64,000 bases of DNA. It comes from Folioceros fuciformis. Its lineage: Eukaryota. Below are positions 1-64,000 of the stretch, in pieces (positions within the stretch are counted from its first letter, which is position 1; every line of letters begins with the position of its first letter). Under the pieces are notes generated by a model. The model worked only from the letters and a program-made list of their open reading frames with translations. It was not told where the DNA came from and did no database searches. The position numbers and the translations under genes are program-made. The DNA is taken from NCBI GenBank assembly GCA_049999805.1, contig JBNGIO010006285.1:227972-291971 (forward strand), read 5' to 3'.

Positions 1-710
1 GGGACAACATGCCAAATGGGACCCTGTATCGACAATGGCAACCCCACAACTGCATGTAGAGAGAGAAAAAGCCAAGGGGTGGGCCAAACCTAAGCGAAAT
101 CTCATCGCGGTGGCGAAAGTTGCTAGTGTCATTCGAAACGCCTGGATGCAAGGTCGAGCTAAAAGCCAAGAGCCTACTCCTTTACCTGAACAAGATCGAA
201 TACGAGCTCGAGAAGACCTAGGGATGGATGAGTCTGAAAGAAGGGCTCTTAAAGCTTGGCCATATTGCTTTTCTAGGAGAGAGGCTTGGAACACCTGAAA
301 TAAAACTTTCAAGAACAGGGGAATCTTGTAGCAAAAAACGAGAGGCCAAAATTGGAGTTGAGAGGGCCCAGCTGCCGAGAAAGGCAGCTGGGGTAGAGGC
401 CTCCATGGCCAAAAGACCAACCCCTCCAAAGGCGACTGGCAAAGAATCCTGCTTCCGAGCCAAATCACCGACAGCACACTCAAAGGTGCTCGGACCTATG
501 ATGTTCCCAAGAGCCTACATAACTTGATTGTCAAACTTCTTGAGACTTGAAAAGAAAAATGGAGAAGGCGTAACAGTTCTAGTGAGGTAACCTGGTCGCC
601 GTGCAAAACAAGAAGAAAAAATACCAAACGCAATCTGAGGATCACCGATTTGTGAGAGGTCTATGATATGAGCCAAATCTTCATCCAACGCTTCATCCAC
701 AAACCTATGA
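1..710 (-). mobile_element. Degenerate non-LTR retrotransposon fragment, RLE-type (CRE/R2-like), post-RT region and CCHC zinc knuckle
   Basis: Minus-strand translation gives 'FVDEALDEDL...RRPGYLTRT', 'LPVAFGGVGL...AAFLGSW' and 'WLLARP...MRFRLG...CSCG...HLACC', a layout typical of RLE non-LTR elements. The frame is disrupted and runs off the window start. Confidence 0.6.
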
Positions 711-16018: not shown

Positions 16019-16370
16019 GCGTCTGATCCGGAGCAAAGATCTGTCCACAAGCGTCTACCACGAGGAAATCCCCTCACGAACCTGGCGCCATCCAAAAGCG
16101 ACTGCGTACTCCCATCTTGCGAGCTGGCCCAATGTGCAAGCAACCCTTGTACTCTTATTTTGTAAACTGGTTCAGATGTGCAAGCAAGCCTTGTACTCCC
16201 ATATTGTGGGCTGGCTCAGATGTGCAGGCAAGCCTTCTACTCCCATATAGTAAGCTGGCTCAGATGTGCAGGCAGGCCTTGTACTCCCATACTGTGAGCT
16301 AGCTCAGATGTGCAGACACGCCTTGTACTCACATCTTGTGCTGGCTCAGAGGTGCAAGCAAGCCTTCTTC
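15960..16370. repeat. Two adjacent minisatellites (~29-bp and ~44-bp units) at the 5' end of the Agenet gene
   Basis: GCGTCTGATCCGGAGCAAGGATCTGTCCACA in 2-3 copies, and a unit resembling GCAAGCCTTGTACTCCCATATTGTGGGCTGGCTCAGATGT in about 5-6 copies. Confidence 0.8.
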
Positions 16371-39386: not shown

Positions 39387-42300
39387 TCATAAAATCAAAA
39401 ACAAGGTCTCAAAGTCATCACAGAGCGCCCTTCCTATAAAAGTTCGGAACTCTGTGATAGACAAGTCATAAGTATGACAATACCCCTGGTAGACTGTGAG
39501 CAGTCTCAAGAACGTGTTTGAAATGAGAGGATTCAGTGGTAATTGCTTCAGCAGGCTAGTCAGTTCAAGCACTCCTGTCACAACTTCTTCTTCCTCGCCG
39601 AGGGGGCCTGCCAGCGTGAGAAGGCCAAGCAAGCTGCGATATAGGCCTTTGAAAGCGTCTTGATGATTGGTTACACCTCCTAGCCAACGCATGTTCACCT
39701 GTAGCTGCACAGCAGACCTTGCAGAAGCCAGGGCTTGTAACAAGAAGCGCTGTCTCCACAGTCTCATCCACTCTTCCATCTGCCTAGCAACTACTGGTTT
39801 AGTGTCTTGCCCAGCCTCGTGAAGTATATCGATGCCACCAAACAGGCCTTGGCCGCCGTCTTTCAAGAAACGCAATAAGCCACGCTCACCACTGATCACC
39901 GACCTCCCATGACCTTGTAACAGTATTTGAAGGTGGTAGCTACTGAGCTGTACAAAGAAGAATTCTTCCTCATGGTGGTTGTCTAGCTCTTTGTCAAACA
40001 GCCGCCGAACCAGATCCGTGCAGTGATAAACATCACTGCCGTTATCTGTTCCTATCATCAGCCGGGCAAGATAATCCCAGTACCCCATCCAAAACCCAAA
40101 ATGCTTTGTAAGAAACGAAAAACTCAGCTGCACAACTCTCTCAACCTGAGCAGGGATGGGCTTGACTGGACCCTTAGATTTTCCTCTCACGGCTATAATT
40201 TCCAAAACTGACAGAGCAAGATTTTGCCGAAGTTCCTGATCTTCATCCTCCAGAAGCTTAATAGCAATGGACCAGACAGTTAAGATGGAGCTTGCGTACC
40301 ATTCTAAGGCTTCCACGTTCTTGCCTTCTAGTACCCTCGCTTTCAGTACATGCCCAACCCATACGGCCTCTTGTAAGAGCCCACAAGCTGCAACAGCCTC
40401 AGCTGTGGCACGACGGAATTTCACTCCTTCACTTGCTTGGCTATGCATTATCAGCAATTGAAGGAACTTATCAATTCTTTCTTGAATGCTCTTGGAAAGG
40501 AGGAGAGAAGATGGCGCCACAGTTAGATCTGTTTCACTTCTGCTCCGTTCCGCAGAACAGGCAAGTTGGTCCTTGTCACCATTCCTCATACGGTTGGCTA
40601 TTGTTGCAACAGAAAGGTTTGTAGATTGAGGGACGGTAACAAAAACGGTTGGACCGGGGAACTTGACTGCTTCCTGCTGATCGTGCCGTATCTGGAGAAC
40701 TAATTGCCCTAGGCACCCACCCAGACATCGTACAGCTATCTCTCTGGTCTTGCTGTGTCTTGATTTTCCATAAACTATTATCAATCTGTCCAATAATTGG
40801 AGCACAGACGACCCTTGGCCCCACACAGAATCTGTGCATAGGTCTTTGGCCGTGTCTTGCCCCTGAGTCCCTTCCACAACACTTCTCAGAGCATAGATCT
40901 TACTCCAACAGAAGAAGACACCTAGAATGCTCCGAACGCAACCGGGATGACTCTCAATGTCTAACCGATCTAAACACACCGGTTGCAGTAGTTCGACAAC
41001 CAGGGTAAGTAGTTTACTCAGCCTTTGGGCACCATGTACCAACTGAAGTTGTTGATTGTTCACGAGAACATGTTGGAAAAACTTTCGCAAGACCTTCAGA
41101 GTTGCAAATCGGATTTCATACTTATCATCGCAAAGAGCCTGACTCAATTGCACTTTCAACATACTGTAAGAAAAAGCACCAATGGAGTGCCCAGTAGATC
41201 CACCTTGTGGAGGCCTGGCAACCGTCCCATCTGCCCCGGAGACAGCGGTATTACCCCAATATCCATCCACCCCTTCGACATTGTCAAGCCAATTGCGCAG
41301 ACCAATTCTAAAATATACAGAGGCTGCTATTTCCCGCAAAATAGTGAACGAAGAGTCGTCTATGGCTTCTGCTCTCCTTTTGTACTCAGTTAGGCATTCC
41401 ATACACAAGTGTACCAGAGACGATTCCAGGCCATAAAAAATTTGACATGCTTCGATTTGCAACATGTGGCACGTCCTCCCAACCTCCAACAATCCATCTA
41501 ACAATTGTAAAAACCCCCCAACCACCATGTGGCAACGACAGAGCTCCACAGAACCAAGCCACAAGAATCTCTCAAGAGTCATAGCAACCATGGTAACAGT
41601 TTTGCATCTCTCCTCTACGTCTGGAATACCTGCACAATTGGAAGTCAAAAGAATGTGCATTTGCAACACAATGCCGTGGACAGCATTAAATGATAGAGTT
41701 TTCCTCTGTTGTTCAGGCAAGCTCCCTGCCAGCCCGACAAGCACACTACACAAATGCTCCTTAGAAACAAGCGGTGCTAATGCCCGAGATGCAAGGACCC
41801 GTACGTGTTGATTACGCTGTGTAGCACATCGAGTTACATACGGCATGAAAGCTGAGGGACTTAGCCAATCTTCACCATCATTATTTATCAAAGATGGTTT
41901 AAGCCGTGATAGAATAATTAGAACTGGGCCCAAACTTGGGTGCAGCCTGTTTGCCACCCCTGCACCCTCATTTAATCCACCACCCGTCCCATGCTCTAAC
42001 TGAAAAGTTGCAGACTGCAGTTCTTCCAATAAAAATGGATGCAGAGCTGGATACCTACAACCGAAAGAGACCGTGGTTACTAGAATGAGGCAGGTCAGTT
42101 TCCGAATACAACTTACTGCCAAGTATCACCATGTCACTCGGATGAATAAACAGCTGTTACCTGTGGAAAAACTCAAATCCAGTGATGGCTCGACGTGCTG
42201 ACTCCCGTTTGTATGCATTCAAAAATCCAATCGTGCGATGCACAAGTGCAGTAAACGCTATAGTTGCACTATTCCTCACTTCCCAATGTCGGGACGAGAA

Positions 42301-45300
42301 TGCTCTAATGGCAACAATTAGTCCCTCTGCACAAAATCCCGAAGTATCTGTTGCCAAATTCGTGTCATGAAAGGCTACTCTCATAACATTAAAGCAATGA
42401 ACGGCTGGAACAACTCCATCATCACGTGATTTGAGAGCCCCAGGCAAATCCTTTTCCACATTCTCCAAACCCACATCACCACCAGCCATGCTTTCCCTTT
42501 TCAGTACTGCCGACATGGCATCATTTTCTTTTCCTGCCTCTGACAGAAAGTTATTTGCCGTATTCAGTATCCATCTCATCGCTGCAGGAAGGAGCTTCTT
42601 AGGTGCACCATCAGGCTCCGACAGAAACAGGGCAAGAAATGCTGCAGGGATCCCAGCACTCCTCCTGAGAAGATCATCAACAGTCTGCCCCTCTGCACCA
42701 GTATGTTTCATAAGCTGCTCCAGCCAAGCTTCTGGCATGGCATTCAACCTGACAGCAGAAATCCATATGGTGAGACAACAAAACTTAAATAATGAGTACA
42801 ACAGAGGGTGCCTGAGCACTACGTCAACCACTAAATTTCCTTTGGAAAGCCATACAAACGGCAATACAAAATGAGGTTAGGGAGGTTTGCATACCGTGGA
42901 TCATTCGACCGCAGAAGACGGTCACAAAGCGCTGTGAACCCAGCCCTAGTCTTGTCGATTGCACCATTATGCTTCATTGATAAAAGGACTTGCAGAAAGT
43001 GCTCACCAATGTTCTCAAGCTGCTTTGTATCCAACAGGATTCCTTCATCATTTGAAATGTCTCCTGTAAGGGAAGCCTCCAACAAGAACCCGTGGCCATC
43101 ATCAGTAGTTGAGTCAGCACTCTCAATGGTAGACCCTGGTAATGGAACTCTTCTGGTGATTGTGCCAAGTAGAAGACTAACCTGCGAACGGGTTCAAGAT
43201 TTGCACTGCACATCAGCACTCACACTAACAGCATCCGAACGGTTACCACACACATGCCACGATACTTTCCATTCTTTACCTCCTTCATTGAAAGCCAGCA
43301 CCCAACCATCACCATCTGCTCCACGGGTGCTAGGCCTTCCTCATCGTCACTCTCTTCCATGTACCCTGCTGCCTCTGCATGGATGCCAGCTTTTGGACCG
43401 TCCCCAGCATGATCATCCTTAATTAACTCATCTGGGCTCAGTCCAAACCTTTCCTGAATATTCAGAGCATCAGCTGATACAACCCACAGGGCAAGGGTGG
43501 TCACGTGCAATAGGAGACTAAGAAGCCTCTCCAGAGCAGTCCGAATGCATGAGGAAGCCATTCGGATGGCTGTAGATGAGAAATCAATCTCATCCATTGT
43601 GTACCGGAGGACCAGCAAAACACCATGCACAAAACTCTGCTCGCATGCTTTCACAAGATTCCGATCTCCTTCACCAACACCCCATTCTAGCCAGTTATTA
43701 AGCGACTCTATGTAAGCACCAATAGCTGCCCCGATTCGATGCATCTCAGAATTTGAATTATTCTCGGACTGTCTGGACTGCTTGACTACATGGGGCTCAG
43801 GATGCATTTCCACAGTCCATCCGAGGTGGCAGACATACTTTTGAAAGATCAGACGTAGAGCTAAGGCACCAGCATCACTTTCTCTTACACGAGGGCTTTG
43901 CACCAATCCTTTCACCCAAACCAAAACTTTCTCAACTTCCACTTCTGAATCCAGGCCAGGCAAAGGAGTCGGAAACCTTGTCAGAACCTTAAAAGCACCT
44001 TCTCTCAGCCTATCCCAGCTATCAACAAGGGAACCGAAAACAACAGACGTTGACTCAGGAGAGAGTAGTCCTTTGTTGTATGGGGAGAAGTCATTTGAAT
44101 CCAGAAGCGGAGAAGAGCTGTAACGACCAGACCTTTTGGCGCAAGGATCAGACAAGTCCCAGACCTCAATAAGTGCGTTTAAAATCTCCATAGCCATGTT
44201 CTTGCGCTCATAAGGAGCAGAAGGATAAAGTGAACAGACAACGAGCTGACTCAACCACTGCATTAAATGCTGCATATCCTCCACACTAACAACAATACTG
44301 TTCTGGTCAACTTCAGGATCGGCCATTGCCAAGTGCTGCAACTCTTCAGATGATAAGTGCTCACTTCCAGTCCTGTTGGGGAAGTAGTTGCTTTGACTGC
44401 CGTTCACAGCTCTTTTGCAGCGATCAAACTGAAGTTTCTTCTCTCTCTCCACAGCAGTTCGTACTCGTATGAAGAATTTCTTCAACAGGCTTATCCACTT
44501 CATACGAAATCCTGTAGATGAGCACCGCATATTCAGTGGTAGAGCGATATGCAATAACCTCAATTCCAAGGGAGATGGCATGGATGCTGTCTTCGGGCTT
44601 AGGCAAATTAATTCAGCAATATCCACTCTGACCCCATCTTCCATGTGGGTTACAGCTGCTTCCAGCAAAGACATGGGCACTGAGATTGGCTGCCCCCTTA
44701 CCAAGAAAACTGCCGATGTCTGTGTAAGGGAACCAAACGTGCTCTCTTTCCCACAAGGAAGTTCACCACAGTATGTAATAGCTCCATCCATAAGCGCCGC
44801 AGACCGAGCCACCTTTAGAATTGAGATGAGAGCTGCTACCTGTTGTTCACTTGTGATACTCTCTGGTAATCCGGCTGCTCCTTCAAGCTCATTCCAAGAA
44901 AAGCTACTTGTATGCTCATTGGAGTCCATGCCCGAAATGCAAGATTCAGGGCCAGTGGAAGAGTCTGACTTGGCCTCATTCAGCACAAAGGCAAGCATGG
45001 GCAATAGGGCATCAGGATCAATTTCCAAGGCCACAGGAACAGCATAGATGTTCAGATTGTTGCGCAACCTGGTGTTCCCAGCAACGAGTCCAGCTAACAA
45101 GGCAGGAACCCAGAGTCTTCTGAACGTCAGGCTGCCCACCGTTACACCCTGGGAGCTCCAATAGTCCTCCCGTAACCGCTCAAGAAAGGATTTTAAAAAC
45201 GAGCTGACAGAGCAGCAGACATCATCATCCTGAAGAGCAAAGATAGTCTCGTGCAGAAGATTAGGACTCATTTCCAGCAGCCTTTTCGCTCCAAGTCGCA

Positions 45301-47041
45301 AAGATAAAGAGGCAAGAGGCACATACCGGCCCTTCCTGTGACCCCCTACTGATAGCAGATCAGTTGCAAGATCCAGGAGAAACTGTTCAGTCGCGGACTT
45401 GGTAGATTTGATACACTGTTCTTCACTATCGCTATGTGGGTGGTGGCCCAGCTGCATCTCTGCAGATAAAGTCGCCAGCGGCAAGTCCTCATATGCTTGT
45501 GGAGCCAGCGAGTGAGTCAAGGCACCAGTTGTTTTCATAGGGTCATGAACGGACTGCACATCAATCAGCAAATCGAAAACGATCTGAACCTGCTTCACTG
45601 TTTGCGTGAGAGGATCCTCCCAGTTGTTCCACACAATCTGCAGCACCTGCTTAATCATGGAGACCGGGAGCGGATTATAAGCCTCGAGAGACAATTGATG
45701 CTTTGCGGCAGCCTGTGAGAACTCTACAGCCGAAATACTCGTCACATCTCCAGTGATGGACGCTTTGATCTGCTGCAGGCACATCTGAGCAGCGGTAATG
45801 GTATGAAACTTGAAATGGCTGTCGATAGCCCTCTCGCAAAGGCTGCACAAGGCAGGAAGAATTCCATCGTACAGAAGCGTCCATACTGTCCACGTCCGAT
45901 CCGCCACTGGTGGCATCGATGCCAGCTCTCCTGGTGTTTCCTGAGGAACACGGACGAGGTGAGCATTCAGAGCAGATCGTGGTATACCAGTGAGCAGCCC
46001 ACGGTAAACGCAAAGCTTTCCGAAGTCGGAGAAGCTCCCAATCTCCGTCGCAAGAGTGCTCCCCCGTTTCGCATGAATAGCAACCTCCAGCATCCCCCGG
46101 TGCCCCTGCTCAAACAACAAACCGTGCTCTTCAGAAAGGAGAGCGTAACGGACACTTGTCGAGCGAAAAGCAGCGCTGGCAAACATGAAGGCAAGAGACT
46201 GAGGACACATCCCGATCTGGGATGCAGCACACAATGCCACTCCTGCGCCTACTACACAGTCACGAGACAAGTGCGTGCATTGCAGCACAGACAAGATGAC
46301 TTCTACTGATGCCAGATAAACTTCATCAAGGTCTCCTTGCAAACGCTCCTGAGAATCAGCAGGGCACCTGAAACTCCCGGAGAACCCCTGCAGTAAATAG
46401 TACAAAGCAGACATGGAATCCTGGCATTCCTCCATTGTCTTGGGAGTCGGCCGCCCGCCCTGCCTGGCATGCGCAAGAACGTCCTCCACATTGCGACACA
46501 GAGAAAGTACGATGGGCTTCAGGCAGTGTTCGGTGACTCTCCGCACCAGCCCGGACCTCTGCGGTAGGGTTGCCAGGGAGGTGGCCAGCCCGGTGAGAGC
46601 GAACTTGCGCTCCTTGCAGCCCCCGGCACCGTAATCCTGGCAGCCCTGGTAGAAGGCATCCTGCACCCAGCCGACTCTCTCAGCCGGGAACTGGTGGAGA
46701 AAAACGGTGAGCAATCCTTTGTGCAGGGGTCGGGAATTCTCCCCGAATACCAACTCCGCGTACAAGCTAAGGGCCCGCCTCGCATCCGGTTCCAGTTCCT
46801 GTTCCTCTTGGCCCGCTCTGCACAGCCCCACCAGCTGGTCTGACAGCCGCTTCACAGCAGCAATCTGCGCAAACGTGTTGGCCATCTGCACGAACTCCCT
46901 CAGAGCTGCCCCGAATGAACTCACTTCGGGAACATCCGATGCTGCAAGTGCCAGCAAATCCTTGTCCGCGGAAGGGGGCAATGTCAAACCCCGGTCCGTC
47001 CAGCGCTTTCTCCTCTGCTGGGCTCTCCACTTAGCCGCCAT
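39387..47041 (-). CDS. THADA: THADA / Trm732 (DUF2428) ARM-repeat protein (exons ~47041-43280, 43181-42895, 42748-42161, 42054-39387)
   Basis: 'MAAKWRAQQRRKRW', 'WNNWEDPL', 'SLYPSAPYERK', 'SPRVRESDAGA', 'VGCWLSMKEVSLLLG', 'KHNGAIDK', 'RRSAGIP' and 'WEVRNSA...EFFHRYPALHPFL'. Confidence 0.93.
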
Positions 47042-48055: not shown

Positions 48056-49010
48056 TCACAGGTCAGGCGTCTCAGGGGCAAGCTCAATCTCGGGAACCAG
48101 AGACTCGGTCTCAGGGGCAAGAAGCTCTGTCGCGGTCTCAGGGGCACGAATCTCTGTCTCGGTCTCAGGGGCAAGGTGCTCTGTCTCGTTCTCAGGGGCA
48201 GGAGGCTCTATCTCGTTCTCAGAGGCAAGAAGCTCAGTCTCGATCTCAGGGGCAAGAAGCTCAATTTTGGACTCGGGGGCAAGAAGCTCTGTCCCAATCT
48301 CAGGGGCATGAAGCTCTGTCTCGGTCTCAGGGGCAAATAGCTCTGTCGCGGTCTCAGGGGCATGAAGCTCTGACGCGGTCTCAGGGGCAAGTAGCTCTGT
48401 CGCGGTCTCAGGGGCATGAAGCTCTGACGCGGTCTCAGGGGCACGAAGCTCGGTCTCGGTCTCAGGGGCAGGAGGCTCAGTCTCTATTTCAGGGGCAAGA
48501 AGCTCAGCCTCGATCTCAGGGGCATGAGGCTCAGTCTCGATCTCAGGGGCAAGAAGCTCAGTCTCGGTCTCAGGGGAAAGAATCTCAATTTCGGTCTCAG
48601 GCGCAAGAAGCTCTGTCCCAATCTCAGGGGCACGAAGCTCTGTCGCTGTATCAGGGGCAAGAAGCTCTGTCTCAGTGTCAGGGGCATGAAGCTCTGTCTC
48701 TGTCTCAGGGGCCAGCTCGGTCTCAGGGACAAGGAGTTCTGTCTCGGTCTCAGGGGCATGAAGCTCAGTCTCGGTCCCAGGGACAAGAAGCCAGTCTGTC
48801 TCGGCCTCTGGGGCATGGGGCTCTTTCTCGGTCTCAGGGGCAAGAAGCTCTGTCTCAGTCTCAGGGGCAAGAAGCTCTGTCTCAGTCTCANNNNNNNNNN
48901 GGGGCAAGAAGCTCTGTCTCAGTCTCAGGGGCATGAAGCTCTGTCTCTCTCTCAGGGGCATGACGCTCCGTCTCAATCTCACGGGCAAGCTCGGTCGGCG
49001 CCTCGGCCTC
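48056..49010 (-). repeat. 27-bp coding-type minisatellite encoding an 'APETETELL'-like 9-aa acidic repeat (~30 copies)
   Basis: Repeated CTCAGGGGCAAGAAGCTCTGTCTCGGT on the plus strand, with an open minus-strand frame. N gap at 48891-48900. Confidence 0.9.
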
Positions 49011-49661
49011 AGGGGCAGGTTCGGATGCTTCACTACGACGGCTCCGGCTCTCCATGCGTGCAAGGGCGACACGAATTCGAAGTCGCCAGAACGCCCCCGA
49101 AGAAGTTGAAGCATTGTTGCCGTAAGGCACTCCACGATGAACATGCATGGCATCCCTCGCTTGTTGATACTTTTGTAACCACAGGAGACTGGTGAAACAA
49201 TTAGAGGTGAGCGCTGCTGCTGCTTCTGAGCAGAAAATGAACAGCACGACGTACATTCTCAAACTATCGGGTCTGCCAAACACGGTAATGAAGAAATTCC
49301 TGCAACCGAACATGAGCTGTGTTACTGTACAATTTCTAGCGGAAGCTGGTGAGGACGTCTTCCTCAAGCTTCACTAGAAACCAATTTCTGGCGAATTCCT
49401 GAGGACCTCACGCTGAAACATGCCGTGACAAGGTTACCTGATCTGAAGTGCGAACATAATAAACCAAACCGCATTCATCGTTGTTAAAGACGCCGAAAGA
49501 GCCGCATATGTATGAACAAAAGCCGGGATGGCAATGTCTCTCATAGCTAACACAGCTAGGGCCAAGTTTATCACTGAGAACCCGAAATACATTGATCCAT
49601 TTGATCCTATCATGGCGCAGTCCAGGAAACATTCACAACTCGACATACTGTCAGTACAGAC
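48056..49661 (-). CDS. Hypothetical membrane protein with a long acidic repeat tail (gene model uncertain)
   Basis: Hydrophobic segments in ORFs 49434-49922 and 48888-49367. The second ORF runs in frame into the repeat before the gap, and the frame stays open to the stop at 48056. Confidence 0.4.
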
Positions 49662-50177: not shown

Positions 50178-50830
50178 GTCTCCCCCTCACAATGGAGCTA
50201 AGGAAGTTTAGCGTCTATCTCCCAAGTGAGCTTCCTTGCTAATGAGTCCAATGTTGCGAACGTGCTTCTCATGCAAGGGCTTGAGCAAACCCTTACTCTA
50301 GAGGTCTGATGTGTTGTCCATGGTGTTCACGTACTTCACTAGGACTTGTTTGTTTGCTACTACCTAACCAAAGAAATGATACTAAATTTCCAAGTGTTTT
50401 GTCTTGGTGTGGAGAATAGGGTTGTGGATCATGGCAATTGCGGATTGATTGTCGAAGAGCAGCTCGGTTGGTTCATCACCAATGTCCTACAGGAACTATT
50501 GAATCCACATGATCTCTTTAGCTGCAAGTGAAGTGGCAGCATACTCTGTTTCGCTGCTTAACAGAACAAATTGTTTGCATCTTCCTCAAGATATGGATGA
50601 GTAATTGATAATCATGTAGTTTGAAGCTGTGGATTTCCTTGCATTTAGATCTCCTACTCAATCTGCATATGAGAATGAGGTCAACTTGAGCTTGTTTCCT
50701 AGTGTTATCTGTTGACTAATCCCAAGGACTTCGTACCCTTCAAATAATGAAAAGTCACTTAACATAGGTTTAATCGATACGTCCAAGATTAGACAAATAT
50801 CTAGAAGCAATGTTCATGGGCCTAAGCTAC
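50178..50830 (-). mobile_element. Ty1/Copia relic, RT/RNase H end and polypurine tract
   Basis: Minus strand reads 'VKYVNTMDNTSDL*SKGLLKPLHEKH', similar to the Copia 'ADIFTKxL' RNase H end. A PPT-like GAGGGGGAGA lies at about 50178-50189. Confidence 0.6.
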
Positions 50831-53415
50831 GTCGGCGATGTGTGAGAAGCTTTGGGCTAGGTAACAACTTTTGTAGATGGATTGCAATGCTTTGTGAGGA
50901 TGCAGGTGCAATGGTCTCTATGAGCGGATCCTTTACCGATAGGATTGATATCAAGAGGTCGGTACGTCAAGGATGCCCTCTAGCCCTGTTCATGTTCATC
51001 ATTGTCACTGACTTTCTTCTGCAAGCAATTAAGTAGGACTTAAGGATTGAAGGCATTCAGAATCCCGACGACTCGCAGCTATGCATCTCGGCCTTTGCTG
51101 ATGATACCCTGTTATTCTCATCTGCAGATACGACGTCCTTAACGGCCTTGCTCTCCAAGGTTCAGATTTTTGGTCAGCTATCAGGGTGCAATGTGAATTG
51201 GAGCAAGATTAGGATTATGTGCGTTAACATGCAGGAGGAGCCACCCGACTACATTAGACACATTATGCGGGTCCAGCCCAGCTCGTCACACAAGTACCTA
51301 GGCCTGTCATTCCAAGAAGAGGATGAGAATGCTGAGATTGGTAAATATGTCTGCCTCAGGTTCATTCAGAAAGCAATCAGCTTATGCCTTTTGGATCTTA
51401 GTCTTGCAAGCAGAATCGTGGTCATAATCCATATTTTGACCACTTCCTTGTGGTACTATTTGTTCTTATGGGCCCCCAGGAAGGTGGACCTGATAAGGCT
51501 GCAACAGATTATTTCCAACTTCTTGTGGAGTAAGTCGAAGGAGCTGCTCTCCCCTTCCCATGAGATGGTGTGGCATCATATAATACAGAGCAAGCGTTTG
51601 GGTGGGCTTGGACTAGTGGATCCCACTTGCAAAATGAAGATCCTTCATGCGCAATGGGTTCTGAAGGCAGCTGGCCCAATGGGCTACCCCCGGAAAAGTT
51701 GGTTAACCCAACACTTGCAGCAAACTCAAGCGGTGGTCCCGGGGTGGAGGTCTATTGACAACTTATTGGCGAATAGACCCTTGCTTGACACTAGGGAGTG
51801 CTCTCCACTCTTTATCTCAATTTGGCGCAGCTTCTTGGAAGTTAAAACCTTCCTTAACTCAGTCCTGCCCAGGAATAGGGATGATGCACTGGGCCTCCCT
51901 CTCCAAGGGTTCAAGGGGCTTTGGTCATAGGAATTCCGTTCGCGGGTGTGTCGATCCCAGATTTTTGTTTCCGCTGGTAGAAGAGGCATTGTGCAACTCG
52001 GGCACCTATGGAACCGAGTAGAAGAAGGATGGAAAACAGTGGAGAAGGTTCGAGAAGAGTTTGGGACTCCGGTTAGACATGTGAGACTAATGCTTTCATG
52101 GCTACAAAAAGGGATGGCAGAAGAGGTGAAGCAAGCGTTATTACGGCAGGCCCAGGTGGGCATTCACACCCTATGGAAGATAGGCTGAGAGATTCCGACT
52201 AGAAGGGGGATGCAGCCATTCCAGACTTTGACAGGGCAGTGCTTGTATCATCTCTGACAGACGACAATGGGAATCTATCCTACAGGACTTTGAGCACAGA
52301 GGGGCTTCTGGAGGTTATAGGCAGAGAAGAAGGTATGATCGGTGGAGTGTGCTTGAGGGGGATTACCACGCTTTACAAGGCGAGGCGAGCGGGTCATTGG
52401 CTTACCCAAGAACAGCATGATAGCAAGAAACAACCTCCGTATCGAAGTCCTGTAAGATGTTGGTTTCGCTTGACGGAGAATTGGAAGTTAGTGATGAGAC
52501 ATGACCTCTATACGTGGCTTGTGACCTCTGGAAGTATACAGAAGAATGCGAGGTCACTCTTCAACTTTCCTTCGAGCACCATCTACCTTTGGTTGGTGCG
52601 CACACAAAAATCTCCTTAGCGAGGTCAACTGGCTCCTAGGTTGAGGCTCTCCTAGTGTCGCCAAAGGGCAACGATCAAACTCTTGTGGTCGACCATTGGG
52701 TTAGTCCCCAAGGTGCGGATTACCATCAAGTGTTTCTTCCAAGCTTGTTTGCCTAACGTGGATCGCCGGGATGGGTTGTTGGCGGCCACGGGGGAGGAGT
52801 AGTGCAGGCTTTGTACTGTTGACGCCCCGCACAAAAGCCAACATATCTTCTTCCAATGTGACTATGCCCAAGGTGTCTAGATTGAAGTTGGCAGATGGCT
52901 CCAAAGTCTTCTCCCGGAGAGAACCATTGTGGTTGCAAAGCAAACTGCCCTATTCGGGCTACATGCGCTGACAGGAGAGCCGCTCGTTCAGAAGCAATGG
53001 TGGGGAGTGGTGTGGTCTCTATCTCTTTGCGCCCTATGACAAAATTGGACAGCTATGGTCTATGGCGGGAGTAACCCGATATCAAGGAAAGCTCTGCTTT
53101 GGCATATCTGGGAACAAGTCCTAGTGATGGCGGAGAGCATTCGTACTTCCGCTCCCAACAAGTTCAGACGGACAGAGTGGAAGGCAGCTGGATTCCTCAG
53201 GCATAATGGCCAGTGAAATCACTCCTGCCCGTGGGAAAGGTAAGCCACACATTGACGAGAGATCTCTCGCTTGCACGATAGATCAGATTTGTTCACCTCT
53301 GCAGTCTAGAAATTTGCAAATAGACTAACGCCTTACACAATTGCGCGTGCAAGCGCTGTACTCTGGATGTAGCTTGAGCTACGGATAATCAAATTTTTTT
53401 CTTCGCGAAAAAAAT
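50830..53415 (+). mobile_element. L1-type LINE relic (5'-truncated RT plus zinc-finger region)
   Basis: 'RSVRQGCPL', 'AFADDTL', 'SGCNVNWSK', 'KYLGL' and 'KRLGGLGL', with stops and frameshifts. An A-run lies at about 53408-53414. Confidence 0.85.
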
Positions 53416-58137: not shown

Positions 58138-61100
58138 TCACAATGTTTTCTGATCCCCAACAACGAACACGTGTGCATTTCCATTCAAGTCCATCCACCA
58201 GGTGCGTCCTGCTTCTTTCCAAGCTTGTGACTCTACTCTCATTTCCTGAACCTTCTTCGCCTCCTGTGGAATGTGAGCAGCGGCATAGATATTTGACATC
58301 AAAATGTATGCTGCAGCGTCACTTTTGTCCAGCTTCACAGCGAATTCAAATGCCTGCCTCCCAAGCTCCACATTGCCCCAATTTCGACAGGCAGCCAAAA
58401 GGCATTTCCACACTCCACTGTCAGGTTGGATAGGCATTGTCTTCACCATGTCCATTGCATCATGGATTCTGCCCGCACGGCCAAGAAGATCAACCATGCA
58501 ATTGTAGTGCTGCATCGTTGGGGTAATGCTATACTCCCTGCTCATGGCCAGAAACAATGCCTGGCCCCTGTCTACTAAACCACCGTGACTGCATGCGATT
58601 AGGAGACCAACAAATGTTACGTCGTTTGGCTGCAAGCCTTGCTTCTCCATCCTCCTGAACAGGTCAAAGACAATTTCACCCTCCCCTTGACGGGCGTATC
58701 CCCCTAGCAAGGCATTCCATGCTGTAATATCTTTACTGGGCACTCTGTCGAACACTTGCTGTGCATCCACCATGCTTGAACATTTGCCATACATGTCAAT
58801 CAGACTGTTGGGTATAAATGAGCCAAGCTCTAAGCCAGCGTTCAAAATCTGGCCGTGAATCTCTCTCCCTTTCTCCAGACCGGCTACATTGCTGCACGCG
58901 TTGAGTGCACCAACATAGGTTCGCTCGTTAGGGATGACACCCTCCTGCTGCATTCGTGTGAACAACTGCAAAGCCTCTTCACCCTTGTCCATTTGAGCAT
59001 ACCCCAAGATCATGGAATTCCACGACACCACGTCACGCCTGGGCATTTTCTCAAACATCTCCCTGGCATCTTCCAGACTGCCACACTTTGCATACGCATC
59101 GACAAGCATGTTCCCTACAAACAGATTTAACTCAAAGTCGTCCTTTCTGACATTCGCATGGATGGCTCTCACAGATTCCAGACACAGCTTTCTAAGCTTT
59201 ATCAAATCACCACCATTTCTCTCCGCTGACTCTACAATGGCAGTGCAAGCTTTAATTGCACCAACGTATGTTCGATCATTTGGGACTACCCCTTCCTCTT
59301 GCATACGCGCATACAATTGCAAGGCCTCCTCACCCTTCGCCATCGTGGCATACCCCAAGACCATGGAGTTCCATGACACCACAGAACGAACAGGCATATC
59401 TTCAAACACCTTCCTGGCATCCTCCAGGCTCCCACATTTCGAGTAAGCATCTACTAGCTTATTCGCCACAAACAGGTTCCCTTGAAAATTCCCCTTGACA
59501 ACATTGGCATGGATGGCTCTCACAGTTTTGAGGTACTGTACTTTGTCCCCATCATCGTTGTTTCCTTCTCTGAGTTCTCCAATGGTACTGCAAGCTTTCA
59601 GTGCGCCAATATACGTTCTACTATTTGGCAACACACCATCCTCTTGCATCTGTGCATACAATCTTAGAGCCTCCTCACCCTTCTCCATCTCAGCATACCC
59701 CAAGATCATTGCAGTCCATGACACCACATCCCGATCAGATAGATTCTCAAACACGTGCCTAGCATCCTCCAGACTCCCACACTTCGCATACGCATCCACA
59801 AGCATTGTCCCCAAGAATCTATCCAACGCCTTCCCCCCCTGTCCAATATCTGTATGGACGCTTCTGACAACCTCAAGGCATCGCTCTTTCCCACGTGTTC
59901 CATGACCAACATTTATGTCCACCAGTTCTCCGACAATACTACAAGCTTTGAGCACAAGAAGATGCGTCTGGTCGTTCGGAACCGTACCAACCTCCCTCAT
60001 CTGTGTGTACAACTGCAAAGCCTCTTCAGACTTCTCCGTCTGGGAGTGCCCCGAGATGATGGAATTCCACGAACCAACATCCCGACGAGGCATTTCGTCA
60101 AAGACCCGCCGAGCGTCCTCCAGGCTCCCACATCGTGAGTAAGCTTCTACAAGCATGTTCCCCACAATCACACTTGATGAAACGTTCCCACCTCCAAAGT
60201 CTGTGTGTATGGCTCTCACAGTTTCCAAACACTGTCTGCTAACAGCTACCACGTCACACCCGTTTCTGTGCCCCCATTCCGCAACGGCAATACAAGCCGT
60301 AAGGGCACCAACACAAGCTCGCTCATCGGGAAGCACACCTTCCAGCCGCATTTTCCTGAACATAAGCAAAGCATCTTCAGCCCTACCCATCTGAGCGCAC
60401 CCAAATATCATGACAGTCCAGGAAACCACAGTACGAACAGGCATACGCTCGAAGACCAGTCTAGCATCCTCGAAGCTTCCACAGTTTGAATACGCATCCA
60501 CCAACGTGTTTCCCACAAACACATTCCCCTCACAGTTCGACTTCCTCACATCCGCATGGATGGCTCTCACGGTGTCGAGGTATCGTCCTTTGGCAACACA
60601 GTCATCACCATCCACCGATCCTAAAACAGCAGTGCAAGCTTTGAGTGCAGCCACGTACACCCGATCGTTAGGAACCACACCCTCCTGGTGCATGCGTTTA
60701 TACAATTCCAAGGCCGCTTCGCCCTTTCCCATCTGTGCGTAACCCGAAATCATGGAGTTCCAAGAGACAACATCCCGGTGAGGCATCTCCTCAAACACCC
60801 TCCTAGCATTATCCAAGCTCCCACATTTCGCATAAGCGTTCACAAGCATGGTTCCCACATAGATATCAGTCTCCAAGCCATTCCTAACCACTTCTGCGTG
60901 AATATACTTGGCAGTACTCAGGTCCTGCAGGCCACTGCACGCCTTCAAGAGAAGGACAAAGGTATGTTGCCCTGGTTCCACCCCATGCTCCCGCATATCC
61001 TGATACAGCTTGAGAGCCTGCCTACCGTGCCCAGACTTGCTTTGCTGCGCTATCAATGTCGTCCAGGAACTTTCCCCTCCCTGGTGTCTGAACTGCCCAT

Positions 61101-61263
61101 CACAACTGGAGCTACTTGTCCAGCTGCCCCTGCCAAACAGTGCGTCCTCCCGCAGAGCATTTGTCACACAATTCAGCTCCCTGACGCCCTCAGTGCTCGA
61201 TCTAACGACTCCCACAGGACATTCTAATCCAAACAAGCCAGAGACTCTGTGAGAGGTGAGCAT
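58138..61263 (-). CDS. PLS-class PPR protein with elongated L motifs and a WW-type PG box, truncated in E+; intronless
   Basis: About 8 P-L-S triplets, E1/E2, then 'WKEAGRTWWMDLNGNAHVFVVGDQ'. The first ATG is at 61263; the ORF opens at 61314. Confidence 0.95.
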   Translation of the reverse strand: MLTSHRVSGLFGLECPVGVVRSSTEGVRELNCVTNALREDALFGRGSWTSSSSCDGQFRHQGGESSWTTLIAQQSKSGHGRQALKLYQDMREHGVEPGQHTFVLLLKACSGLQDLSTAKYIHAEVVRNGLETDIYVGTMLVNAYAKCGSLDNARRVFEEMPHRDVVSWNSMISGYAQMGKGEAALELYKRMHQEGVVPNDRVYVAALKACTAVLGSVDGDDCVAKGRYLDTVRAIHADVRKSNCEGNVFVGNTLVDAYSNCGSFEDARLVFERMPVRTVVSWTVMIFGCAQMGRAEDALLMFRKMRLEGVLPDERACVGALTACIAVAEWGHRNGCDVVAVSRQCLETVRAIHTDFGGGNVSSSVIVGNMLVEAYSRCGSLEDARRVFDEMPRRDVGSWNSIISGHSQTEKSEEALQLYTQMREVGTVPNDQTHLLVLKACSIVGELVDINVGHGTRGKERCLEVVRSVHTDIGQGGKALDRFLGTMLVDAYAKCGSLEDARHVFENLSDRDVVSWTAMILGYAEMEKGEEALRLYAQMQEDGVLPNSRTYIGALKACSTIGELREGNNDDGDKVQYLKTVRAIHANVVKGNFQGNLFVANKLVDAYSKCGSLEDARKVFEDMPVRSVVSWNSMVLGYATMAKGEEALQLYARMQEEGVVPNDRTYVGAIKACTAIVESAERNGGDLIKLRKLCLESVRAIHANVRKDDFELNLFVGNMLVDAYAKCGSLEDAREMFEKMPRRDVVSWNSMILGYAQMDKGEEALQLFTRMQQEGVIPNERTYVGALNACSNVAGLEKGREIHGQILNAGLELGSFIPNSLIDMYGKCSSMVDAQQVFDRVPSKDITAWNALLGGYARQGEGEIVFDLFRRMEKQGLQPNDVTFVGLLIACSHGGLVDRGQALFLAMSREYSITPTMQHYNCMVDLLGRAGRIHDAMDMVKTMPIQPDSGVWKCLLAACRNWGNVELGRQAFEFAVKLDKSDAAAYILMSNIYAAAHIPQEAKKVQEMRVESQAWKEAGRTWWMDLNGNAHVFVVGDQKTL

Positions 61264-61777
61264 ATCGCCACAAAGGTCAGACCAAGCCACATAGCAGCCC
61301 AAATCTACCGCCAAGGAACCGAATGCTTCAAAGATTTTTCAGTCACCTCCATCTCTTTTCAGTGTTGGCCGTAGCTCCAAATTCTCAGGGTCTCAAAAAA
61401 AAGATCGCTCCAGAATGCCTGCAGCATCACATGACAAGAGGACATGCAACGCATTATCCAACACTACATGACCTTGCTACCTACATAAGCACACCTAACC
61501 TACCATACATGAACTGACATATATTTATAATGCTCAAATAAATATAATAATATCAATCAATATTTTATTTAAAATTTTACAAGCTTCATGTAATCATTTT
61601 GGTGTAACCTTTATAAATTTTTTATTAGATATTTCAAACTCATATGTGTTATTCACATTTTTAAAAGAGACTCTATGCATACTTTGATTAGAAGCTAGAA
61701 AGATCCAACTATCCACCTTCGTAGTATTACCATACCCTAATATTTTGCTCTAAAGTAGAAGCTTTACGTCTACTTAA

Positions 61778-62899
61778 TTACTTACTGCTATAATACTCTA
61801 ATATTCTACCATAAAGTAACTGCTTTAATTCATGTTGGGACAAATCGGCTAATCCAAGAATCTCAAACTGGGACCACACCTTGGACCAAGCATCTACACC
61901 ACAAGTTTTTTGTTCTTGAGCTCCCACTTCAAAACAAGATTGTAACAAAACCTCTTTAGCTATGATGACTAAGTTGGAACTACAAGTCTTCAGTCCTTCC
62001 TTCTTTCCAAAAAAGGGATGTCTCAAAGCTTCTTCAGCTGTGATAGCTTTTTGCTTACTTTTCACAGAAAGAAGATGGAGTAGTGATACAACCATAGGAT
62101 CAGCTACACGACATCTATCTTTATGATATCTTGTAATGTTTGTCTTCAAATCTACTTCAACTGGATATGCACTTGATAATATTTCCTCGAAGATGCTAGC
62201 TACATCCCAAATATCAATGAAGGAGTGTTTTAAAGACGTCTTTGGCACACCATAAGCTTGAGGTCCTAAGTGAAAATCTAGTGATGGATGGAGATAGTAC
62301 CCATTAGTTGGCATGGCTCGAGCTAACCCAAAATCACATATTTTAAGTAAACCGTTAGAGTTTACTAGTATGTTGCTGGACTTCAAATCTATGTGGACAA
62401 CATTCATGGAATGCAAATACTGTACTCCTGAAAGGATTTGGTAGAGGAAATCTCGTTGTTCATCTGTAGATAAATTTGAGTCGTTTAGCACTGCAGAAAG
62501 ATCATTAGCCATGAGTTCCGTCACTATGTACACATCATCAAAATCTTCGTTTGGTGGAAGAAATACATCTTTGAATTGAACAACATGTTCGTGTCTTAAT
62601 GATTGAAGTAAGGCTAGTTCTCGGAAGGTGCTTAGAATTATGTCTCGATTGTTGAAGAGATGTATGCGTTTGATGGCCACATTTTCTCCTCTTGTCAAGT
62701 CTTCAGCAGCATATACCATTCCGAAAGCTCCCTGACCTAAATATTTCATCACATGGTATGATGATTGAATACCATAATTAGGAAAATAAGAACCAATTGG
62801 TTCGCTGTAATTACTCATCACCTTTCCAGTAACAAGCATATGATTAAGAAAGAGTGCAGTATATGCAATAACAATCGTCAGCATGTAAAAACCCTTCAT
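61778..62899 (-). CDS. Divergent MAP-kinase-like protein with a hydrophobic N-terminus; intronless
   Basis: GQGAFG, VAIKRI, TFREL, 'DFDDVYIVTELMANDL', 'FLYQIL.G..YLHS.NV.HIDLKSSN', 'LKICDFGLAR' and 'ITAEEALRHPF'. No TxY or APE motif. Confidence 0.9.
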   Translation of the reverse strand: MKGFYMLTIVIAYTALFLNHMLVTGKVMSNYSEPIGSYFPNYGIQSSYHVMKYLGQGAFGMVYAAEDLTRGENVAIKRIHLFNNRDIILSTFRELALLQSLRHEHVVQFKDVFLPPNEDFDDVYIVTELMANDLSAVLNDSNLSTDEQRDFLYQILSGVQYLHSMNVVHIDLKSSNILVNSNGLLKICDFGLARAMPTNGYYLHPSLDFHLGPQAYGVPKTSLKHSFIDIWDVASIFEEILSSAYPVEVDLKTNITRYHKDRCRVADPMVVSLLHLLSVKSKQKAITAEEALRHPFFGKKEGLKTCSSNLVIIAKEVLLQSCFEVGAQEQKTCGVDAWSKVWSQFEILGLADLSQHELKQLLYGRILEYYSSK

Positions 62900-62944
62900 T
62901 TTAATAAGTGAACTTTAGACTTGAGAAGACAAAGTTTTAACTAG

Positions 62945-62954
62945 TTTTATATAA
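62945..62954 (-). promoter_or_regulatory. Putative TATA box of the MAPK-like gene
   Basis: TATATAAA on the minus strand, about 50 bp upstream of the ATG at 62899. Confidence 0.45.
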
Positions 62955-63084
62955 AGGGATTCAAGCGAGGTAGGAAACGGCACAATACCAATGGGCCATA
63001 TATACTATACACCAATGGTCCATATATAGTATATAATAATTCTTGAATTCGAATGATTTGTATAGGCAGGATTCACGCGATTTC

Positions 63085-63116
63085 CAACCCTAAACTCTAA
63101 ACCATAAACCCTAAAT
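63085..63116. repeat. Short degenerate plant telomere-like tract (CCCTAAA, ~4 units)
   Basis: AACCCTAAACTCTAAACCATAAACCCTAAA. Confidence 0.6.
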
Positions 63117-63193
63117 TCGAGCCTGTGCCTTTATGGCTTCCTGCGCCTAAGGAGTCTAGCAGAAAAGCAGTTAAGTGGATTTGAGGACTGTCT

Positions 63194-64000
63194 TCAGTGC
63201 CGGTCCATACAAGAACAGAACCCGCCCAGGAATCGATGAACTCGATGTGCATCCCTCACTATGATCTCCCGCTTCTCAAGCCGTGACATGATCTTGGTGC
63301 TGCTATGGCAGTCATCACACATGCGAAGATTTTTGGTAACTAGTAAAGTGGCGCCGTCTGCTGTATGCAGCAGGCCGTACGCCAACGCCAGTTTCTCGGC
63401 ATGTCCACAGAGGGCATTCTCCTTTACCTGCTCACACCATGCGTTCAACACTAGCTCTGTTTGTGGCACATGGCCTCCTTCCTCCTTCAGCCTCGCATTC
63501 ACACTCCTCGACTTACACACAACGTCAGGCCTTCCTTCTCCTACTGTGAACTCATGCACCTCGTTCTTCACTTCGATGCATGCCTTTGCAGGCTTCTTCA
63601 TGGCACCTGCCGACTTTCTCAAGCTCTCTATCCTTTCTGCATCGTGCCACCTGCCTGCTCTGGCATAGATGCTCCCCAGTAGGATGTACGCACTCGCATC
63701 ATCTGCTTCCAGTTCTACAAGACGGTCGAAGCATCGTCTTCCACGCTCTACATCACCGTAGCTTTTGCAAGCACTCAGCAAAGCTGTCCAGGCAACAACG
63801 TCGTTCACAAATAGCCTGCTTCGCACCATGTTTTCAGCCTCACGCAGTTTTCCTGACCGCCCAAGAAGATCAACCATGCAGCTGTGGTGATAATCAGTAG
63901 GCACAATCCCGCCGCGTTCTACCATCATCTTGAAATAATGCTGGCCTTCGTGCACCAGGCCCGCGTGACTGCATGCCACAAAGAGACAGATGTAGGTAGT
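63194..64000 (-). CDS. PPR-E-DYW:KP ('KPAxA...DRH') protein, 3' part only; candidate U-to-C RNA-editing deaminase-family enzyme
   Basis: L2-S2-E1-E2, then 'KKPAKACIEVKNEVHEFTVGE', 'LCGHAEKLALAYGLL', 'KNLRMCDDCH' and 'DAHRVHRFLGGFCSCMDRH*'. The gene continues past the window end. Confidence 0.95.
   Translation of the reverse strand, partial: TTYICLFVACSHAGLVHEGQHYFKMMVERGGIVPTDYHHSCMVDLLGRSGKLREAENMVRSRLFVNDVVAWTALLSACKSYGDVERGRRCFDRLVELEADDASAYILLGSIYARAGRWHDAERIESLRKSAGAMKKPAKACIEVKNEVHEFTVGEGRPDVVCKSRSVNARLKEEGGHVPQTELVLNAWCEQVKENALCGHAEKLALAYGLLHTADGATLLVTKNLRMCDDCHSSTKIMSRLEKREIIVRDAHRVHRFLGGFCSCMDRH

Follow-up and report, generated by a model that had tools for sequence, protein, structure and literature searches.

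The 64,000-nt stretch of Folioceros fuciformis DNA analysed here (the window) contains, at 61778-62899 on the minus strand, a single open reading frame (ORF) of 373 codons plus a TAA stop that is derived, by sequence and model, from the mitogen-activated protein kinases (MAPKs). MAPKs are the textbook example of kinases that remain inactive until an upstream kinase phosphorylates their T-x-Y motif. In the ORF product, this switch, the arginines that read it, the P+1 pocket and the docking and insert elements were lost together, and the ATP site and catalytic residues are tightly constrained. On balance, we lean towards reading the ORF as a maintained non-RD kinase or ATP-binding scaffold that derives from an ERK/TDY-type MAPK and acts independently of MAPK kinases (MKKs). 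If expressed and active, it would show how little of a MAPK suffices for function; if silent, it would be a well-preserved, fast-evolving orphan copy of little wider interest.

Catalytic core and activation segment

The Pfam Pkinase domain (PF00069) covers residues 48-297 with an E-value of 1.3e-42, and the 60 best PDB sequences are all MAPKs, with ERK1 and ERK2 leading at 5e-40. An AlphaFold2 (AF2) model built from a 50-row alignment reached a mean predicted local distance difference test (pLDDT) value of 76.7 and a predicted TM-score (pTM) of 0.77, with the core at residues 50-200 above 90. The top PDB matches of this model in Foldseek were ERK2 and Fus3 (E 4e-19, TMq 0.61-0.67); an ESM Atlas search returned generic CMGC clusters only. 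The C-terminus scored 5.1 bits against a hidden Markov model (HMM) of the L16 block from 49 MAPKs, compared with -0.7 ± 1.1 for shuffles (reached by 7/2000). A helix is modelled at residues 355-367, the 10-residue block means of pLDDT are 91-92 over residues 351-370, and tblastn high-scoring segment pairs (HSPs) of plant group D MAPKs extend to 61790. By alignment and model, the ORF is not a fragment: it derives from an entire MAPK and includes both the pre-domain motif at the N-terminus and the L16 helix; its MAPK descent had been proposed in an earlier reading of the DNA without database searches (the sequence-only reading).

Compared with MAPK alignments, the ORF keeps G55/G57/G60 of the Gly-loop, the VAIK lysine (K77), the alpha-C glutamate (E94), H169, the catalytic aspartate (D171), K173, N176 and D189-F-G. 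Pseudokinases are recognised by the loss of the VAIK lysine, the catalytic aspartate or the DFG aspartate; K77, D171 and D189 are all retained, and the sequence gives no indication of the pseudokinase that the sequence-only reading had offered as an alternative. The HRD motif reads HID (R170I), with HIDLKSSN for the HRDLKPSN loop, the T-x-Y columns read D208-F209-H210 (T208D, Y210H), both arginines of the TRWYR block are changed (R214Q, R217G), APE has become V-P-K (E220K), and the subdomain-XI arginine has become an alanine (R285A). A stretch of about 35 residues that comprises alphaG and the MAPK/CMGC insert is absent between positions 243 and 267, and five conserved columns are thereby deleted. 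The alignment thus bears out what had been noted by eye about the retained lysine, glutamate, aspartate and DFG, the HID motif, the lost subdomain-XI arginine and the short CMGC insert. The same reading held that the T[ED]Y-VxTRWYRAPE segment was replaced by unrelated sequence; the loss of the motif stands, and the segment is instead a degenerate copy that aligns without gaps (T-E/D-Y-V-x-T-R-W-Y-R-A-P-E against D-F-H-L-G-P-Q-A-Y-G-V-P-K), in which only Y216 and P219 of the P+1/TRWYRAPE block persist.

In ERK2 structures, R65, the HRD arginine and both TRWYR arginines read the phospho-Thr and phospho-Tyr. Of the corresponding arginine network, R93 is retained in the ORF, and R90, R170, R214 and R217 are altered; S90 (codon 62630-62632) stands opposite residue 84 of ERK1 (a chain of 379 residues), i.e., at the ERK1 R84/ERK2 R65 position. 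The joint loss of both acceptors and the reader arginines is coherent and suggests that the whole switch was discarded. Because acceptors and readers are both lost, switching through T-x-Y is ruled out, and the proposed MKK-independence is, as far as T-x-Y is concerned, supported by the alignment. D208 was considered as a phosphomimetic and rejected, since the arginines that would read it are lost. Separately, an ERK2 R65S structure (4s33) was among the Foldseek matches.

In the mechanism proposed here, selection would have preserved the nucleotide-binding lobe and catalytic machinery almost unaltered (Gly-loop, K77, E94, D171, K173, N176 and DFG), and the traits of a regulated, proline-directed, docking-dependent MAPK (T-x-Y acceptors, reader arginines, the APE-Arg(XI) pair, alphaG and the MAPK insert) would have been dismantled. 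If expressed, the protein is predicted to bind ATP and not to be switchable by a MAPK kinase. Two roles are conceivable, that of a non-RD kinase with a new substrate surface, either constitutive or under some other regulation, and that of a scaffold that binds ATP. Tethering or routing of the protein to membranes by its hydrophobic N-terminal extension is possible and is the weakest step of the proposal.

Frame integrity and selection

The ORF had been described as uninterrupted and intronless, and both descriptions hold. In 2000 base shuffles of the ORF, the longest open frame counted 154 codons against the 373 observed, which lies far beyond chance, and the remaining five frames of the same stretch hold 18-37 stops. 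An unspliced intron was considered and rejected, as no donor matching AG|GTAAGT at 7/8 positions or more occurs anywhere in the ORF. A hidden frameshift or spare TEY exon was rejected as well: in a tblastn search of 61300-63300 with 8 MAPKs, significant HSPs fell only in the ORF frame, all others having E >= 0.1.

To what extent the protein was constrained can be read from 77 alignment columns with 90% or more conservation across 49 MAPKs. Up to DFGLAR, 41/45 of these are kept, compared with 10/27 after it, where 5 more are deleted (Fisher p 1.7e-6). This asymmetry argues against uniform neutral decay. Indels relative to MAPKs are all in frame. In a neutral null of substitutions only, started from the ORF and using local base composition, 0/1000 runs were still free of stops at any of three levels of amino-acid identity; at 80%, 60% and 40%, the runs had gathered 6.2, 12.0 and 17.7 stops on average, respectively. 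Because this null never left the frame open, we conclude from the sequence that selection probably held the frame and the ATP/catalytic core through most of the history of the gene.

The ORF could also be a dead or dying relic, i.e., a once-constrained copy that is now an unexpressed pseudogene still without a stop codon, although we regard this as unlikely. Such a relic would fit a third-position composition identical to that of non-coding DNA, the change of 17/27 conserved C-lobe columns and deletion of 5, the lack of close relatives in protein searches, and a decayed duplicate of the last codons directly past the stop. The duplicate is a 35-nt copy that, by eye, lies in register (L-K-L-L-L-stop-S-K-I-L-G-Y versus L-K-Q-L-L-Y-G-R-I-L-E-Y) and looks like an old tandem duplication of the 3' end of the gene whose copy outside the ORF has decayed. 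It is difficult to reconcile a relic with the 0/1000 neutral simulations that stay open even at 80% identity, the 41/45 conserved N-lobe and catalytic columns, indels that are all in frame with no MAPK-like piece in another frame, and the 18-37 stops in the other five frames.

Origin, N-terminus and genomic setting

A quick maximum-likelihood tree (LG+C20) was computed from 52 rows, namely the query plus 31 and 20 rows chosen from two match lists, restricted to proteins of 650 residues or fewer, so that the multi-kinase proteins topping the HMMER list were left out. The terminal branch of the query measures 3.4 (median 0.29), and the query falls on the TDY-clade side of the tree, where plant group D provides the nearest rows by path. 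Approximately unbiased (AU) tests gave log-likelihood (lnL) differences of +1.51 for the query with plant group D (p-AU 0.564), +0.87 with fungal Hog1 (p-AU 0.536) and -5.0 with the plant TEY types (p-AU 0.341). The sequence-only reading had kept both plant and fungal MAPKs in view; group D now has the best likelihood, yet the AU test rejects neither the Hog1 nor the plant TEY placement. Discrete characters lean towards the plant TDY type, e.g., the pre-domain motif YFPNYG..SSY (FFTEYG..SQY in the plant TDY type), the loop length of 16 residues between DFGLAR and T-x-Y, which is nearest to the 15 of group D and exceeds that of plant TEY types (11-13) and Hog1 (9), and the C-terminal LLYGRILEYY (LIYREILEYHP in the plant TDY type).

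Group D MAPK genes have 7-14 introns according to the available part of a plant MAPK survey (PMC4363184), and an intron-free copy therefore suggests retroposition. Of the retro-copy proposed earlier, the lack of introns stands; retroposition itself is only a possible mechanism, as no poly(A) tract or target-site duplication was found at the locus, although none would be expected to survive such divergence. The most likely origin is an RNA-mediated or other intron-less copy of an ERK/TDY-type MAPK, probably followed by very fast evolution. As a separate observation, 51037-51930 (+), together with 50716-51036, encodes a reverse-transcriptase fragment (Pfam RVT_1 2.6e-07, 31 bits, F-A-D-D box) that is probably the remnant of a non-LTR retroelement, so retroelement activity has occurred near the locus. 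Mobile-element borders were sought and rejected, as the surroundings of the ORF show no convincing repeats, whether terminal inverted or long direct ones.

Close relatives are missing from the collections searched. A word-indexed search of 5.8 billion proteins yielded 886 matches, the 120 listed having 31-48% identity; among these 120, plants, fungi, chytrids and protists are mixed, the best of them at similar identities of 33-39%, and the ORF product itself is absent from the collection. An exhaustive HMMER search over 1.84 billion representatives gave 542,411 matches at E ≤ 0.001, the best 150 of which include none above 49% identity, and those span the N-lobe only. JGI metagenomes contributed one locus (L001) at 25% identity, and a scan of IMG/VR no relative. 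In full-text literature searches, no plant MAPK lacking both acceptors, the RD arginine, the P+1 block and alphaG was found, and no plant MAPK-like kinase with a secretion signal, although supplementary tables might list such outliers. The sequence-only reading, which knew of no such plant family, is thus in line with sequence searches that reach at most 49% identity and with literature searches that gave no match. Judged by these searches, the gene is an orphan to which no described or sequenced family is closely similar.

A foreign origin, in which the ORF was acquired horizontally from a fungus or protist, or travelled as cargo of a mobile element or virus, and was not copied from a host MAPK, seems improbable. 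The ORF has a GC content of 0.373 and a third-position GC content (GC3) of 0.313, compared with a GC3 of 0.45-0.645 in six neighbouring ORFs; with 0.54-0.56 in the flanking PPR genes, it forms an AT-rich island, as noted before the analysis. This composition would suit a foreign gene, as would the survival of the fungal Hog1-type clade in the AU test (+0.87, p 0.536), the taxonomic mixture of the best matches at 33-39% identity and the reverse-transcriptase fragment 10 kb away. Conversely, the short intergenic flanks are as AT-rich as the ORF (GC 0.25-0.37), so local mutation pressure can account for its composition; no donor-like sequence exceeds 49% identity among the best 150 matches from 1.84 billion representatives; IMG/VR and the JGI metagenomes offer nothing beyond the single 25%-identity locus; the ORF is flanked neither by terminal repeats nor by genes of mobile elements; and both YFPNYG..SSY and LLYGRILEYY most resemble the plant TDY type, whose group D placement has the best likelihood (+1.51).

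The gene appears to be single-copy and is integrated. A separate 6181-nt DNA contig connects the ORF and the PPR gene and shows 0 differences, and the ORF is therefore integrated and not a contaminant, although the run behind this contig may itself be the source of the assembly. By tblastn, the ORF matches only itself within the window, and in DNA runs at 80% likeness extra cover within the ORF is confined to a short peak at the codons of the catalytic loop and DFG. Contigs of run X4, taken by guess to be RNA, match both flanking PPR genes without differences (3704 nt, and 304 nt at 63286-63589); none lies over 61226-63208, which is no evidence either way on expression.

The hydrophobic N-terminus reported by the sequence-only reading exists, though it stands out only weakly beyond chance. 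Its 19-residue Kyte-Doolittle maximum is 1.72 (residues 6-24), a value equalled or exceeded by 561/20000 random stop-free 27-mers of ORF composition and 1510/20000 of flank composition, i.e., 2.8-7.6%, and by 13/300 real AT-rich stop-free stretches of the window. AF2 places a helix over residues 2-26 at pLDDT 56-63. An in-frame stop six codons 5' makes Met1, with an A at -3, the earliest possible start; Met28 (gtgATGa) is an alternative start, with which the kinase domain would be preceded by about 20 residues, as is usual for MAPKs. The TATA-like box described upstream was located as TATATAAAA, and the reported sequons NYS, NLS and NIT are joined by NDS. From these data, segment 4-24 may be a signal peptide, an anchor or a chance product of T-rich DNA.

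A secretory or membrane version of the protein would start at Met1, with segment 4-24 as a cleavable signal peptide (possible V-T-G | K site) or a signal anchor, and we consider this doubtful; that a MAPK-derived kinase would consequently act in the secretory pathway, at the membrane or in the apoplast is unlikely to the same degree. Such a version would draw on the hydropathy maximum of 1.72, the single Lys before the hydrophobic run and the small residues at -3 and -1 before K26, on the AF2 helix, on the TATATAAAA box at -54 to -46, which would place Met1 within the mRNA, on the A at -3 and the upstream in-frame stop, and on four N-x-S/T sequons. It is countered by the hydrophobicity of 2.8-7.6% of random 27-mers and 13/300 real stretches, by a helix pLDDT of merely 56-63, by the ordinary cytosolic MAPK N-terminus that a Met28 start would yield, and by literature searches that found no secreted MAPK-like kinase of plants. 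The full combination, i.e., a host-encoded, MKK-independent kinase of MAPK fold that is translated from Met1, secreted or signal-anchored, and active at a membrane, cell-wall or symbiotic interface, appears very unlikely; literature searches found no described examples of such a class of secreted or signal-anchored MAPK-derived plant kinases.

Returning to the maintained, MKK-independent kinase or scaffold, a number of observations tell against it. The GC3 of 0.313 equals that of the surrounding non-coding DNA and not that of host genes, which fits a weakly expressed or recently silenced gene equally well. Selection is deduced from indirect signs only, namely the intact ORF and the uneven decay along it. 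The AU tests, rejecting none of the three placements, do not separate subfamily or kingdom of origin, and the marks of retroposition named above are absent. AF2 is unsure at residues 205-222 and 251-264 (both below pLDDT 50) and at 309-333 (low pLDDT), and the C-terminal 76 residues searched alone against PDB matched no MAPK, the sole match being an ABC transporter at E 0.37. With 17/27 conserved C-lobe columns changed and alphaG missing, the protein may be unstable or inactive despite its intact catalytic residues.

Table 1. Positions of the ORF, its domains and motifs, and nearby sequence elements in the window
Feature	Coordinates	Strand	Basis or remark
Intact single-exon ORF, diverged MAPK-family kinase	61778..62899	-	P0001
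Protein kinase domain, residues 48-297	62009..62758	-	Pfam PF00069
Hydrophobic N-terminal segment (FYMLTIVIAYTALFLNHMLVT-G), residues 4-24	62828..62890	-	Hydropathy, AF2
Catalytic loop H-I-D-L-K-S-S-N, residues 169-176	62372..62395	-	Non-RD; catalytic Asp, Lys and Asn retained
DFG motif, intact, residues 189-191	62327..62335	-	Alignment
Degenerate activation segment and P+1 loop, residues 195-220	62240..62317	-	Alignment; AF2 pLDDT below 50 at 205-222
Short remnant at alphaG/MAPK insert, residues 244-266	62102..62170	-	Alignment; AF2 pLDDT below 50 at 251-264
Lineage-specific insertion of ~30 residues between HPFF and L16, residues 298-345	61865..62008	-	Alignment; low pLDDT at 309-333
MAPK L16-like C-terminal helix (…LSQHELKQLLYGRILEYY), residues 346-371	61787..61864	-	L16 HMM, AF2, group-D HSPs
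Diverged 35-nt copy of last coding segment (61793-61827)	61732..61766	-	Family D1, 77% identity, spacing 61 nt
TATATAAAA box	62945..62953	-	46-54 nt 5' of Met1; putative function, from sequence only
Two tandem 24-nt units with CCAAT and TATATA-like motifs, 5' of ORF	62987..63034	.	Family D2, 88% identity

The ORF is flanked by two PPR genes of its own strand, one at 58138-61314 and a DYW-type gene from 63194 to beyond 64000; also within the window are a third PPR gene, a Trm732/THADA-like gene, an ABCF-type ATPase and a GT43 fragment. Among named proteins, those of lycophytes and ferns come closest to the PPR neighbour (36-41% identity), and unnamed homologues reach only about 50%, which points to a land-plant host, probably seed-free, that is missing from the protein collection. 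The 3704-nt X4 contig (57522-61225) stops some 90 nt short of the upstream end of the long PPR ORF (61314), so the start codon of this PPR gene may be located downstream of the listed TTG. At the DYW end of the other PPR gene (63209-63600), 150, 149 and 135 contigs were found in runs X1, X2 and X4, about 3/4 of them under 90% alike, and the X4 word depth there is about 5000, which indicates a very large DYW-PPR family in the genome. Upstream of the kinase ORF, 63086-63118 holds two AACCCTAAA copies (telomere-repeat or telo-box-like) 21 nt apart, and raised DNA-run cover at 63056-63149 suggests that this motif is repeated in the genome. ORFs of 911 and 1273 aa at 39387-42122 and 43220-47041 (-) match Trm732/THADA in its C-terminal and central TPR regions and probably form one gene with few introns. 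Three further ORFs on the minus strand, of 725, 468 and 365 aa (11923-14100, 14642-16048 and 48056-49153), match no Pfam family at E ≤ 0.01.

Comparison with known systems

Plant group D (TDY) MAPKs, represented by the Punica MPK9-like protein P0013 and by P0005, P0006 and P0105, show the highest identity to the ORF product (40% over 306 columns for P0005). They share with it an F-x-x-Y-G..S-x-Y motif at the N-terminus, a similarly long activation loop (15 residues versus 16 in the ORF), the L16 sequence LIY.EILEY, and the lack of the acidic segment after HPY that is carried by TEY types and that we take to be the common-docking motif. Unlike group D, the ORF has D-F-H for TDY, is non-RD, lacks alphaG and the MAPK insert, has no long C-terminal tail and ends 6 residues past L16, shows a tree branch more than 10 times longer, and contains 0 introns versus the 7-14 given in the available part of PMC4363184. 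The same part of that survey (Mohanta et al. 2015, PMC4363184) lists 7 intronless MAPKs and eight variant loop motifs (TQY, MEY, TEC, TVY, TEM, TSY, TQM and TRM), so departures from T-E/D-Y and from the intron pattern are already known. As far as they are described there, these variants have one acceptor changed and keep the rest of the segment, whereas the ORF has lost both acceptors, TRWYRAPE, the HRD arginine and alphaG.

For a kinase domain behind an N-terminal secretion signal, there are precedents outside the MAPKs. Fam20C/VLK and the Toxoplasma ROP kinases carry secretion signals. So does the Phytophthora effector kinase CRN8, according to the accessible text of PMC3426532. Unlike the ORF product, all of these are pathogen or animal kinases, and their families are unrelated to it. 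Should the ORF product also be secreted or membrane-anchored, it would represent a new cell-biological class for plants.

Atypical MAPKs such as ERK3/4 (SEG) and NLK (TQE) lack a full T-x-Y and stand outside canonical dual-phosphorylation control. The ORF product resembles them in being a MAPK-fold kinase not governed by canonical dual phosphorylation, but they retain one phospho-acceptor, the RD arginine, the P+1/APE block and the C-lobe; NLK (P0089) is a weak match to the ORF and lies apart from it in the tree. Engineered MAPKs provide the other comparison. As reported in the available parts of PMC4791124 and PMC5007096, ERK1(R84S)/ERK2(R65S) are intrinsically active and yeast Mpk1 variants are TEY-independent, i.e., the MAPK fold can act without MEK or TEY phosphorylation. 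The ORF carries a natural serine (S90) at the position that is mutated in those ERK variants. Unlike the ORF, the engineered ERK and Mpk1 variants are otherwise intact, and R65S is described there as acting largely via autophosphorylation of the loop, for which the ORF has no acceptors. If expressed and active, the ORF product would be a natural counterpart of these engineered TEY-independent ERK and Mpk1 kinases, including the Ser at the ERK1 R84/ERK2 R65 position.

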